The notes under the pieces were generated by a model, which was not told the origin of the DNA, searched no databases, and saw only the letters and a list, made by a program, of their open reading frames with translations. A stretch of DNA of 64,000 nt from the NCBI GenBank assembly GCA_964016885.1, contig OZ024741.1, positions 207,638,001 to 207,702,000 on the forward strand, in the 5' to 3' direction. This DNA is from Eledone cirrhosa. Lineage: Eukaryota. Below, piece by piece: positions 48,320 through 64,000 of this stretch (positions within the stretch are counted from its first letter, which is position 1; each line of letters opens with the position of its first letter). A program made the translations under genes and the position numbers.

Positions 48320-48985
48320 TTAGAATTGGAGCTCTGAAATAGCAATATATATATATGGATGTATATATAATGTATTTTGCAATACACTTTATGCTTAATT
48401 AAAGGCATTTTGAAGACCGTAAGCTATTGTTTTAATGTAGTGACAAATTCACTCACTTTGATCTCAGCAAACAGGGGAGATAAGCCGACATTACATGTTT
48501 CGCTTTTGTTGAAGCTTATCAAAGCCAACTACCCCGCCTGTCTACTGAGATCAATGATGTTATATTCTTATAGAAATCTAGTAAATAATCAGGAGCTGAT
48601 TATGCAGAGCGGTTGTTGGTCAGGCAGAAATTAAAAATTAGAATTGGAGCTCTGAAATAGCAATATATATATGGATGTATATATAATGTATTTTGCAATA
48701 CACTTTATGCTTAATTAAAAGCATTTTGAAGACCGTAAGCTATTGTTTTAAAGTAGTGACAAATTCACTCACTTTGATCTCAGCAAACAGGGGAGATAAG
48801 CCGACACGACATGTTTCGCTTTTGTTGAAGCTTATCAAGGCCAACTACCCCGCCTGTCTACTGAGATCAATGATGTTATATTCTTATAGAAATCTAGTAA
48901 ATAATCAGGAGCTGATTATGCAGAGCGGTTGTTGGTCAGGCAGAAATTAAAAATTAGAATTGGAGCTCTGAAATAGCAATATATA
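48320..48985 (-). repeat. About two satellite/retrozyme monomers (316 bp) inverted relative to the main array
   Basis: Reverse complement of the main array; period 316 (48377 to 48693). Confidence 0.95.
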
Positions 48986-49110
48986 CATCCATATATATAT
49001 TGCTATTTCAGAGCTCCAATTCTAATTTTTAATTTCTGCCTGACCAACAACCGCTCTGCATAATCAGCTCCTGGTTATTTTCTAGATTTCTATAAGAATA
49101 TAACACCATT

Positions 49111-49203
49111 GATCTCAGTAGACAGGCGGGGTAGTTGGCCTTGATAAGCTTCAACAAAAGCGAAACATGTCATGTCGGCTTATCTCCCCTGTTTGCTGAG
49201 ATC
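49111..49203 (+). ncRNA. Type I hammerhead ribozyme, U3-A8 core (first plus-strand copy; repeated per monomer); predicted cleavage after C49176
   Basis: Stem I ggcc/ggct, extended by tagacagg/cctgtttg and gatctcag/ctgagatc. Core 49141-49147. Stem II GCTT/AAGC. GAAA at 49162-49165. Stem III ACAT/ATGT. GUC triplet. Confidence 0.88.
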
Positions 49204-52200
49204 AAAGTGAGTGAATGTGTCACTACTTTAAAACAATAGCTTACGGTCTTCAAAATGCTTTTAATTAAGCATAAGTGTATTGCAAAATACATCCATATAT
49301 ATATTGCTATTTCAGAGCTCCAATTCTAATTTTTAATTTCTGCCTGACCAACAACCGCTCTGCATAATCAGCTCCTGATTATTTACTAGATTTCTATAAG
49401 AATATAACATCATTGATCTCAGTAGACAGGCGGGGTAGTTGGCCTTGATAAGCTTCAACAAAAGCGAAACATGTCATGTCGGCTTATCTCCCCTGTTTGC
49501 TGAGATCAAAGTGAGTGAATTTGTCACTACTTTAAAACAATAGCTTACGGTCTTCAAAATGCTTTTAATTAAGCATAAAGTGTATTGCAAAATACATTAT
49601 ATATACATCCATATATGTATTGCTATTTCAGAGCTCCAATTCTAATTTTTAATTTCTGCCTGACCAACAACCGCTCTGCATAATCAGCTCCTGATTATTT
49701 ACTAGATTTCTATAAGAATATAACACCATTGATCTCAGTAGACAGGCGGGGTAGTTGGCCTTGATAAGCTTCAACAAAAGCGAAACATGTGATGTCGGCT
49801 TATCTCCCCTGTTTGCTGAGATCAAAGTAAGTGAATATGTCACTACTTTAAAACAATAGCTTACGGTCTTCAAAATGCTTTTAATTAAGCATAAGTGTAT
49901 TGCAAAATACATCCATATATATATTGCTATTTCAGAGCTCCAATTCTAATTTTTAAATTCTGCCTGACCAACAACCGCTCTGCATAATCAGCTCCTGATT
50001 ATTTACTAGATTTCTATAAGAATATAACATCATTGATCTCAGTAGACAGGCGGGGTAGTTGGCCTTGATAAGCTTCAACAAAAGCGAAACATGTCTTGTC
50101 GGCTTATCTCCCCTGTTTGCTGAGATCAAAGTGAGCGAATTTGTCACTACTTTAAAACAATAGCTTACGGTCTTCAAAATGCTTTTAATTAAGCATAAAG
50201 GGTATTGCAAAATACATTATATATACATCCATATATGTATTGCTATTTCAGAGCTCCAATTCTAATTTTTAATTTCTGCCTGACCAACAACCGCTCTGCA
50301 TAATCAGCTCCTGATTATTTCCTAGATTTCTATAAGAATATAACATCATTGATCTCAGTAGACAGGCGGGGTAGTTGGCCTTGATAAGCTTCAACAAAAG
50401 CGAAACATGTCATGTCGGCTTATCTCCCTTGTTTGCTGAGATCAAAGTGAGTGAATGTGTCACTACTTTAAAACAATAGCTTACGGTCTTCAAAATGCTT
50501 TTAATTAAGCATAAGTGTATTGCAAAATACATCCATATATATATTGCTATTTCAGAGCTCCAATTCTAATTTTTAATTTCTGCCTGACCAACAACCGCTC
50601 TGCATAATCAGCTCCTGATTATTTACTAGATTTCTATAAGAATATAACATCATTGATCTCAGTAGATAGACGGGGTAGTTGGCCTTGATAAGCTTCAACA
50701 AAGCGAAACATGTCATGTCGGCTTATCTCCCCTGTTTGCTGAGATCAAAGTGAGTGAATTTGTCACTACTTTAAAACAATAGCTTACGGTCTTCAAAATG
50801 CTTTTAATTAAGCATAAAGTGTATTGCAAAATACATTATATATACATCCATATATGTATTGCTATTTCAGAGCTCCAATTCTAATTTTTAATTTCTGCCT
50901 GACCAACAACCGCTCTGCATAATCAGCTCCTGGTTATTTTCTAGATTTCTATAAGAATATAACACCATTGATCTCAGTAGACAGGCGGGGTAGTTAGCCT
51001 TGATAAGCTTCAACAAAAGCGAAACATGTCATGTCGGCTTATCTCCCCTGTTTGCTGAGATCAAAGTGAGTGAATGTGTCACTACTTTAAAACAATAGCT
51101 TACGGTCTTCAAAATGCTTTTAATTAAGCATAAGTGTATTGCAAAATACATCCATATATATATTGCTATTTCAGAGCTCCAATTCTAATTTTTAATTTCT
51201 GCCTGACCAACAACCGCTCTGCATAATCAGCTTCTGATTATTTACTAGATTTCTATAAGAATATAACATCATTGATCTCAGTAGACAGGCGGGGTAGTTG
51301 GCCTTGATAAGCTTCAACAAAAGCGAAACATGTCATGTCGGCTTATCTCCCCTGTTTGCTGAGATCAAAGTGAGTGAATTTGTCACTACTTTAAAACAAT
51401 AGCTTACGGTCTTCAAAATGCTTTTAATTAAGCATAAAGTGTATTGCAAAATACATTATATATACATCCATATATGTATTGCTATTTCAGAGCTCCAATT
51501 CTAATTTTTAATTTCTGCCTGACCAACAACCGCTCTGCATAATCAGCTCCTGATTATTTACTAGATTTCTATAAGAATATAACATCATTGATCTCAGTAG
51601 ACAGGCGGGGTAGTTGGCCTTGATAAGCTTGAACAAAAGCGAAACATGTCATGTCGGCTTATCTCCCCTGTTTGCTGAGATCAAAATGAGTGAATGTTTC
51701 ACTACTTTAAAACAATAGCTTACGGTCTTCAAAATGCTTTTAATTCAGCATAAAGTGTATTGCAAAATACATTATATATACATCCATATATATATTGCTA
51801 TTTCAGAGCTCCAATTCTAATTTTTAATTTCTGCCTGACCAACAACCGCTCTGCATAATCAGCTCCTGATTATTTACTAGATTTCTATAAGAATATAACA
51901 CCATTGATCTCAGTAGACAGGCGGGGTAGTTGGCCTTGATAAGCTTCAACAAAAGCGAAACATGTCATGTCGGCTTATCTCCCCTGTTTGCTGAGATCAA
52001 AGTGAGTGAATGTGTCACTACTTTAAAACAATAGATTACGGTCTTCAAAATGCTTTTAATTAAGCATAAGTGTATTGCAAAATACATCCATATATATATT
52101 GCTATTTCAGAGCTCCAATTCTAATTTTTAATTTCTGCCTGACCAACAACCGCTCTGCATAATCAGCTCCTGATTATTTACTAGATTTCTATAAGAATAT

Positions 52201-62100: not shown

Positions 62101-63769
62101 CTTATCTCCCCTGTTTGCTGAGATCAAAGTGAGTGAATTTGTCACTACTTTAAAACAATAGCTTACGGTCTTCAAAATGCTTTTAATTAAGCATAAAGTG
62201 TATTGCAAAATACATTATATATACATCCATATATGTATTGCTATTTCAGAGCTCCAATTCTAATTTTTAATTTCTGCCTGACCAACAACCGCTCTGCATA
62301 ATCAGCTCCTGATTATTTACTAGATTTCTATAAGAATATAACACCATTGATCTCAGTAGACAGGCGGAGTAGTTGGCCTTGATAAGCTTCAACAAAAGCG
62401 AAAAATGTCATGTCGGCTTATCTCCCCTGTTTGCTGAGATCAAAGTAAGTGAATATGTCACTACTTTAAAACAATAGCTTACGGTCTTCAAAATGCTTTT
62501 AATTAAGCATAAGTGTATTGCAAAATACATCCATATATATATTGCTATTTCAGAGCTCCAATTCTAATTTTTAATTTCTGCCTGACCAACAACCGCTCTG
62601 CATAATCAGCTCCTGATTATTTACTAGATTTCTATAAGAATATAACATCATTGATCTCAGTAGACAGGCGGGGTAGTTGGCCTTGATAAGCTTCAACAAA
62701 AGCGAAACATGTCATGTCGGCTTATCTCCCCTGTTTGCTGAGATCAAAGTGAGCGAATTTGTCACTACTTTAAAACAATAGCTTACGGTCTTCAAAATGC
62801 TTTTAATTAAGCATAAAGTGTATTGCAAAATACATTATATATACATCCATATATGTATTGCTATTTCAGAGCTCCAATTCTAATTTTTAATTTCTGCCTG
62901 ACCAACAACCGCTCTGCATAATCAGCTCCTGATTATTTCCTAGATTTCTATAAGAATATAACATCATTGATCTCAGTAGACAGGCGGGGTAGTTGGCCTT
63001 GATAAGCTTCAACAAAAGCGAAACATGTCATGTCGGCTTATCTCCCTTGTTTGCTGAGATCAAAGTGAGTGAATGTGTCACTACTTTAAAACAATAGCTT
63101 ACGGTCTTCAAAATGCTTTTAATTAAGCATAAGTGTATTGCAAAATACATCCATATATATATTGCTATTTCAGAGCTCCAATTCTAATTTTTAATTTCTG
63201 CCTGACCAACAACCGCTCTGCATAATCAGCTCCTGATTATTTACTAGATTTCTATAAGAATATAACATCATTGATCTCAGTAGATAGGCGGGGTAGTTGG
63301 CCTTGATAAGCTTCAACAAAAGCGAAACATGTCATGTCGGCTTATCTCCCCTGTTTGCTGAGATCAAAGTGAGTGAATTTGTCACTACTTTAAAACAATA
63401 GCTTACGGTCTTCAAAATGCTTTTAATTAAGCATAAAGTGTATTGCAAAATACATTATATATACATCCATATATGTATTGCTATTTCAGAGCTCCAATTC
63501 TAATTTTTAATTTCTGCCTGACCAACAACCGCTCTGCATAATCAGCTCCTGATTATTTACTAGATTTCTATAAGAATATAACATCATTGATCTCAGTAGA
63601 CAGGCGGGGTAGGTGGCCTTGATAAGCTTCAACAAAAGCGAAACATGTCATGTCGGCTTATCTCCCCTGTTTGCTGAGATCAAAGTGAGTGAATTTGTCA
63701 CTACTTTAAAACAATAGCTTACGGTCTTCAAAATGCTTTTAATTAAGCATAACGTGTATTGCAAAATAC

Positions 63770-63952
63770 GGTGAATTGGCAGTATCGGTAGAGGGTCGGA
63801 CGCCATGCTTGACGCATAGATATACGGCCCTTGCCATTCTGAGTTCAAATCCCGCCGAGGTTAACTTTGCCTTTCATCCTTACGGGGGTCGATAAAATAA
63901 AGTACCAGTAATACACTGGGAAATTGCTGGCCTTGTGCCAAAAGTAGAAACA
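63770..63952 (+). mobile_element. MetaSINE-like SINE at the identical monomer position (duplicate of 58919-59102)
   Basis: Near-identical sequence and the same preceding variant gcataacgtg. Confidence 0.92.
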
Positions 63953-64000
63953 ATTATATATACATCCATATATGTATTGCTATTTCAGAGCTCCAATTCT

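Follow-up and report, generated by a model that had tools for sequence, protein, structure and literature searches.

We analysed a 64,000-nt stretch of the Eledone cirrhosa genome (contig OZ024741.1, positions 207,638,001 to 207,702,000; hereafter the window) and searched the 3.0-Gb assembly to which it belongs (1,796 contigs). From position 48319 to 64000 the window is filled with non-coding retrozyme units, spaced 316 or 304 nt apart, 47 on the plus strand and 2 on the minus strand, each carrying a type I hammerhead ribozyme. Units of the same family are dispersed through the genome, and the layout of these copies supports, as far as sequence can tell, insertion with the footprint of a Penelope-like element (PLE): an inverted arm, a one-ended tail and a microsatellite target. 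The original prediction had described about 49 units in more than 15 kb. Its unit count holds for the window, but the array as assembled measures 53,691 bp, contains 168 plus and 2 minus units (170) and ends at G000:C2:207,740,009. Across the whole array the plus-unit spacing is 316 nt in 92 cases and 304 nt in 66.

The array is itself built as a two-armed insertion. Its left boundary is a (TA)n microsatellite (48227-48318), which is the insertion target. A short inverted arm on the minus strand (48319-49000; 2.1 units with 2 hammerheads) follows, and its outward 3’ end at 48319 lies at unit position 166 after the cleavage site, the long-tail (T) end. The 5’ ends of both arms meet inside an AT hairpin at the inversion junction (48979-49000). 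The long arm then runs on the plus strand from 48979 to 64000 as head-to-tail 316/304-nt units, which we call family A, and continues beyond the 47 units of the window to 168, finishing at the short (S) end at about position 140, where it runs into (TA)n. The big array thus has its T end on the left, its S end on the right and (TA)n on both sides, which is the layout of the dispersed two-armed insertions described below. The two minus copies are one arm of an inverted insertion and do not belong to the head-to-tail run.

The hammerhead of the first plus copy occupies 49111-49203 on the plus strand within a closing rod, and is complete as the original prediction had read it. Stem I is formed by GGCC (49137-40) and GGCU (49177-80), stem II by GCUU and AAGC, and stem III by ACAU and AUGU. 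The core lies at 49141-49147, followed by GAAA and a GUC triplet, and cleavage is predicted at 49176/49177. In place of the usual C3-G8 pair the core has U3-A8 (UUGAUAA), and does so in 49/49 window units, all of which fit the general hammerhead core (Y3 U4 G5 A6 N7 R8 A9 / G12 A13 A14, A15.1-U16.1, H17). Over the whole array 165/168 plus units keep the core and 144/168 retain all stems as well. The proposal that C3U and G8A are compensatory is borne out by sister families with C3-G8 in the same genome. The change is not new, however, since natural U3-A8 hammerheads have been reported to be active in vitro (Perreault 2011, PMC3088659), and about 1,300 matches are given for Schistosoma PLEs (Cercyon min-HHRs; PMC4209133).

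These sister families were reached from the window. Family B, 75% identical to family A, is represented at 41021-41514 by a diverged insertion with a two-armed T/S layout between (TA)n runs, and has the canonical core CUGAGGA. Family C, reached from family B, has the UUGAUAA core on stems unlike those of family A. Family D, likewise reached from family B, has a 338-nt unit with canonical CUGAUGA, a 6-bp stem I and a minimal stem III. U3-A8 is fixed in two families, A and C, whose stems I-III are unlike. A further U3-A8 variant, on a family-B-like backbone, is inserted beside a PLE at L221:2073-2480, so that the change may have had more than one origin; UUGAUAA is also read in one copy of family D (L176).

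Covariation was examined over 15 copies of families A, B and C, which were hand-picked from three related families and so represent few independent events. Across the 13 pairs, 96.9% of cells pair, against 16-44% in slid controls, and 7/13 pairs are altered on both sides. Double-sided changes between the families affect pair 3-8 (U-A in 10 copies, C-G in 5), stem I, all four stem II pairs and stem III, and they back the three-stem type I layout with an open stem I. On this evidence the hammerhead is genuine and maintained by selection. A scan with Rfam models, suggested as a check in the original prediction, gave a divided result: no hammerhead family reached its gathering threshold, yet Hammerhead_HH9 aligned at 30.4 bits (gathering 52; E 2.1e-6 on 101 nt) with the core, stem II and GAAA in register and loop II aligned to the HH9 consensus. 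Because four sister-family loci, the canonical family D among them, also score below gathering, that threshold is not diagnostic here. A generic hammerhead pattern scan missed real degenerate copies.

The low Rfam score would suit a reading in which the U3-A8 ribozyme lacks activity and the family is spread passively, like a fragment of a PLE pseudo-long terminal repeat (pLTR), as would the finding that 8/9 predicted Xenopus retrozyme dimers were uncleaved in vitro (Li et al. 2026, bioRxiv 10.64898/2026.07.22.740005). We give this reading very little credence, as U3-A8 is fixed in families A and C despite their differing stems, is present also at L221, and is among the cores reported active (PMC3088659). 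The form in which cleavage would occur is likely to be the double hammerhead. In each of families A-D stem III can pair in trans with a second copy of itself, and that of family A has a calculated energy of +1.0 kcal/mol as a hairpin but -10.5 as a trans duplex; in the monomer, the hammerhead fold lies above a competing rod. As stem III pairs in trans and the monomer fold is disfavoured, units would be cut mainly as dimers, for which a model is given in PMC4209133.

Dispersed family A copies were located through an exact 21-nt core sequence, which has 1,311 matches in the genome, 141 of them in this array. Extrapolation from the first 100 matches listed gives roughly 540 other family A loci. 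Those 100 matches form 46 clusters, 25 with units on one strand and 21 on two strands, and in 21/21 of the latter the arms are divergent (back-to-back). From the best matches to a full unit we mapped 34 family A loci and the top 30 each of families B and C; two arms were found at 29/34, 21/30 and 15/30 loci, respectively. Dispersed units occur as monomers through multimers. Together with tandem units, a hammerhead in each and the absence of coding capacity, this bears out the earlier identification as a non-LTR retrozyme (LTR, long terminal repeat). The array has no open reading frame (ORF) of 120 aa, its sense frames being full of stops, and the unit, with a GC content of about 35%, falls within the range for such elements (150-450 bp, GC <45%, one type I hammerhead each). 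No LTR-like layout was seen among the mapped insertions; primer-binding sites and polypurine tracts were not searched for.

The outward 3’ ends of the arms fall in two narrow classes, S at 120-152 nt and T at 160-176 nt after the cut, which together hold 149/159 ends. Typically, the S arm stops some 128-140 nt beyond the cleavage site and its T partner some 164-175 nt beyond it. On the array these sites are at 49608-49620 (S, unit positions 128-140) and 49644-49653 (T, unit positions 164-173), both on the plus strand, the exact base of the S end being blurred by the ATAT run of the unit itself. Among the 65 two-armed loci, 55 had both ends classified and 10 had one end unclassified; the 55 comprise 51 S+T, 2 S+S and 2 T+T (p 2e-11). 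Runs of AT flank 69/77 T ends and 53/72 S ends, compared with 9/29 free 5’ ends and a background of 2.8%. All 59 measurable arm junctions differ from one another, and only 2/118 of the inner, 5’ ends come to within 5 nt of the cut. When the junctions were examined for microhomology, exact extension left apparent gaps at 38/59, but many of these are produced by mutations and we conclude nothing from them. Recurrent 5’ ends at positions 44 and 92 proved to be artefacts of the reference copy and vanished on re-mapping.

An inverted arm could also come from snap-back self-priming of one cDNA, which has been proposed for Penelope (PMC3846280), or from inverted duplication at the DNA level after insertion. 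The haplotypes and private variants that both arms share agree with such an origin, and the junction at the array locus does sit in a hairpin. We nevertheless consider it improbable. Near-mirror junctions make up just 7/59 (16% expected by chance) and no two of the 59 coincide; the two outer ends differ in a fixed manner; and neither arm is consistently the longer (among 24 family A loci counted by hand, T exceeds S in 13 and S exceeds T in 11). A divergence of 1.3% between arms also speaks against artefacts of fold-back reads.

As a control for this footprint we used an autonomous family of this genome. H1, a Hydra-type Penelope family, is present in the window as a two-armed truncated copy (34263-37682) with its S end on the left and an interrupted tail end on the right. 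Its open frames are 662-726 aa long and contain DKT, CxCX5C and GIY-YIG motifs, read in the L213 frame; terminal repeats are 98.7-99.3% identical in three loci. In its CxCX5C linker, DKT, C-terminal GIY-YIG, (TA)n target and hammerhead H1 agrees with the Hydra clade as characterised in PMC8557442. Look-alikes of reverse transcriptase (RT) and of GIY-YIG were found for its frames at 0.96-0.99, while Pfam and PDB scans of the PLE frames gave no RT match. Measured from its own hammerhead, the ends of H1 lie about 21-33 or 115-119 nt downstream, and 6/6 two-armed loci with both ends readable are S+T. As a separate observation, the H1 hammerhead has the core CAGAAGA, with A at position 4, in what is a young family with intact frames (window 34263-37682; L213-L219).

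From these results we hold with good confidence that the units are inserted by Penelope-type double priming, whether the template is circular or linear, and the carrier PLE is probably of the Hydra clade. The full version of our reading, in which a PLE that targets (TA)n carries the 316-nt unit as a non-autonomous non-LTR retrozyme and a circular RNA is the template, we regard as evenly balanced. In it, the hammerheads would cleave read-through RNA of tandem copies, probably in double-hammerhead form, and a host ligase would close the monomers into circles. The GIY-YIG nuclease of the Penelope enzyme would then nick both strands of a (TA)n tract, a step whose footprint is observed and whose chemistry is conjectural. 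Each 3’ end would prime reverse transcription on the same RNA, one at S and the other at T about 26-45 nt further on; each cDNA would pass the cleavage junction for one to several rounds and halt at a variable place; and the two cDNAs, joined 5’ to 5’, would give the divergent two-armed insertion. A three-hairpin domain predicted at 49538-49630 (plus strand), which is kept in families A-D with compensatory changes, is a candidate recognition site for the RT. More specifically, and tentatively, a Penelope dimer may copy one ribozyme-made circle from both strands of the (TA)n break, its subunits obliged to use differing starts, with the three-hairpin domain rather than homology hijacking the enzyme.

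The arms themselves restrict the choice of template. In family A, 58/64 arm segments cross the cleavage site, 27 of them at least twice and all without scars, so that a cut linear monomer is not the template. At non-recurrent sites divergence within an arm (0.0113) equals that between loci (0.0115), and the arms were therefore already multi-unit at insertion. Variant 296C, a non-CpG change, is carried by all units at 4 loci and by no unit at 19, with 0 loci mixed, and two private variants at L046 are in all units (7/7 and 6/6). One haplotype per locus would fit rolling-circle copying of one monomer, and also copying of a homogeneous multimer.

The latter has been considered as a template in its own right: the same Penelope double priming would act on uncut linear multimers from young homogeneous loci, and the ribozyme would only free the RNA from longer host transcripts. 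We find this possible but rather unlikely. It too predicts scarless passage through the cut site, and it gains from mixed haplotypes within family B arms and from the Poseidon PLE, for which uncut RNA is the dominant substrate (PMC11167929). However, most loci have 1-4 units and yet arms reach 6.5 units with private variants throughout (L046), compensatory change has kept the ribozyme in four families, and the RNA of other animal retrozymes is abundant as monomeric circles (PMC7229834).

Several observations weigh against the circular-template reading or parts of it. Haplotypes are mixed in family B, at site 109 in 5/22 multi-unit arms and across arms at site 290 in 2/13 loci, as well as at family C site 278 (2/9) and at three family A sites; this fits heterogeneous multimer templates or recurrent mutation. 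The Poseidon ribozyme is dispensable, and uncut RNA is the main substrate there (PMC11167929). The hammerhead fold of the monomer is 5.4 kcal/mol above the competing rod by nearest-neighbour energy. The tail of H1 is about 90 nt, compared with 26-45 nt in the retrozyme unit. The mapped loci are the best matches to the full unit, and one arm is hence long by selection. Finally, no autonomous element sharing unit sequence was found among three PLE families of many (32 comparisons, best z 1.8), the third of which was compared through its window copy only.

Other candidates for a partner were examined and set aside. An apparent likeness of the unit to PLE ends was no better than that of shuffles, and A-C and A-D profile scans of the window and the PLE loci returned only further retrozyme insertions. 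Retrozymes adjoining PLE frames at L084 and L221 are separate insertions and not PLE parts. Termination by RNA polymerase III (Pol III) at a T-run was rejected as an origin of the T end, since no T4 run accompanies the T ends of family D and H1.

The array locus began as a two-armed insertion whose right arm later expanded to 168 units through duplication at the DNA level. Blocks of as many as 7 consecutive identical units are repeated within the array, and a 184-bp insert is present 4x at the same unit position, with three copies identical; a fixed-period autocorrelation was uninformative. In the original prediction, read-through transcripts of the array would self-process into 304/316-nt RNAs or circles, perhaps mobilised by Penelope RTs; on such a reading the array would be an active master locus that seeds the dispersed copies. 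Penelope mobilisation is supported by the footprints on dispersed units, and the hammerhead is intact in 144/168 array units, but the 304-nt unit does not share in that support. This unit is defined by a 1-nt and an 11-nt deletion (49270-49296, plus strand) that remove part of the S-end hairpin; its junction occurs in about 40% of units, and 65/65 genome matches to it lie within this array. A second array variant has 80 occurrences in the array and 3 elsewhere, and the array lacks variant 296C, which 6 dispersed loci carry. Since the array variants are nearly confined here, the array is not a detectable source of new copies. As a source for retrotransposition the master locus is largely refuted and appears very improbable, though the array could still be transcribed.

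Judged from its sequence, then, the unit would count as a non-LTR retrozyme, with insertions resembling those of a non-autonomous PLE. Animal non-LTR retrozymes as described (Cervera and de la Pena 2020, PMC7229834; bioRxiv 10.64898/2026.07.22.740005) likewise have tandem AT-rich units of 150-450 bp with one type I hammerhead, are non-coding, range from dimers to long multimers (62-mers, up to 300 units) and co-occur with PLEs. In the Eledone families, unlike those, U3-A8 is fixed in whole families and copies are mostly divergent and two-armed, lie in (TA)n and have ends of a fixed asymmetry. Retrozyme insertions that are inverted, tailed and targeted to a microsatellite are not described in the examined text of either paper, whose supplements may differ, and PMC6765202 and PMC7151607, in the portions available, add nothing on such a footprint. 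Literature searches by title or abstract found none, although supplements, Repbase or subscription journals may hold the family or the observation. The known U3-A8 hammerheads (PMC3088659; PMC4209133) have the identical compensatory core change; in the present case the hammerheads are full-size and sit in tandem retrozymes, and this genome also holds sister families that read C3-G8.

The likeness to endonuclease-bearing (EN+) PLEs extends to details of the insertion. These carry a 5’-truncated partner in inverted orientation and a tail of 30-40 bp that is frequently confined to one end (Craig et al. 2021, PMC8557442; Arkhipova et al. 2013, PMC3846280); for the Hydra clade the insertion target is (TA)n (PMC8557442). 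In vitro, the purified protein of the Poseidon PLE cleaves AT-rich DNA on both strands and extends each of them, and its RNA has two internal starts downstream of the hammerhead, with the tail being the interval between them (Frangieh et al. 2024, PMC11167929). The Eledone retrozymes share the inverted truncated partner, the one-end tail, the (TA)n target and a hammerhead upstream of two internal starts, with the Hydra clade especially. In contrast to EN+ PLEs, the unit has no ORF, the whole element is a repeated 316-nt unit with no detected sequence homology to the three PLE families tested, and tail pairing is nearly strict (51/55) rather than optional. Non-autonomous Chlamys PLEs such as MRC1 are also non-coding and form multi-copy head-to-tail insertions moved by PLEs, but they share 3’ sequence with autonomous partners and belong to a clade mostly without hammerheads (PMC8557442).

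For animal retrozymes PLEs have been called a strong candidate for mobilisation (PMC7229834), to which co-occurrence and pLTR phylogeny have since been added (bioRxiv 10.64898/2026.07.22.740005); their mode of integration has so far been hypothesised from co-occurrence and pLTR similarity. In the genome analysed here the Penelope footprint is seen in hundreds of young copies, with an autonomous family alongside them as positive control. The U3-A8 core and the array size have precedents, and it is the integration footprint with its internal control that we consider worth pursuing. The near-strict pairing of tailed and tail-less ends constrains Penelope transposition itself, and the 316-nt RNA, two start sites, (TA)n target and intact Hydra-type frames make up a minimal in vitro system. 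If a dimer does copy circles, these loci would be direct genomic evidence for animal retrozyme movement, each insertion would record two-directional rolling-circle reverse transcription, and the Penelope tail and inverted repeats would be products of one reaction. The array locus in addition shows a single retro-insertion becoming a 54-kb satellite.

Some smaller features of the unit and the array remain to be described. The 184-bp insert is a SINE-like (short interspersed element-like) dispersed sequence within a unit at 58919-59102 (plus strand), copied with the array; its second copy is at 63770-63952. ARAGORN found no tRNA in it. On the hammerhead-sense strand it has what we take to be Pol III A- and B-box-like motifs, and because a T5 run follows within about 55 nt downstream it is unlikely to drive read-through. 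Around the hairpin domain, families A-C have a GTRAGT that we presume to be splice-donor-like (unit ~30-35, window 49510-49515) and a presumably acceptor-like TTTCAG (~143-150, 49623-49630). PLE terminal repeats can contain introns.

Further hammerhead repeats are present in the window. A degenerate family D copy at 22339-22583 (plus strand) has its tail end running into (TA)n, and a tandem hammerhead repeat at 26575-27104 (minus strand), family E, lies between two (TA)n runs and has a CUGACGA core, a minimal palindromic stem III and downstream hairpins similar to those of the other families. Just left of the array, at 47975-48100 (plus strand), is a degenerate motif that resembles a hammerhead and has a long insert in stem II. 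Outside the window, seven near-identical family D loci (L160-L166) about 60 kb apart at G000:C1:143.35-143.80 Mb represent a large segmental tandem duplication.

The window also holds several other retroelements. Fragments at 10843-14076 (minus strand), which include a weak Pfam zf-RVT match, presumably derive from a non-LTR retrotransposon with a restriction-like endonuclease. A PLE copy at 18130-20620 (plus strand) has a hammerhead near 20457. The two-armed PLE at 31939-34258 is flanked by (TA)n, with a tail asymmetry of about 75 nt and no recognisable hammerhead in this copy. Inside the H1 tail, at 37698-39909, is a very young two-armed PLE whose arms are 100% complementary over 1,010 nt and whose GIY-YIG frame is from a clade other than that of H1.

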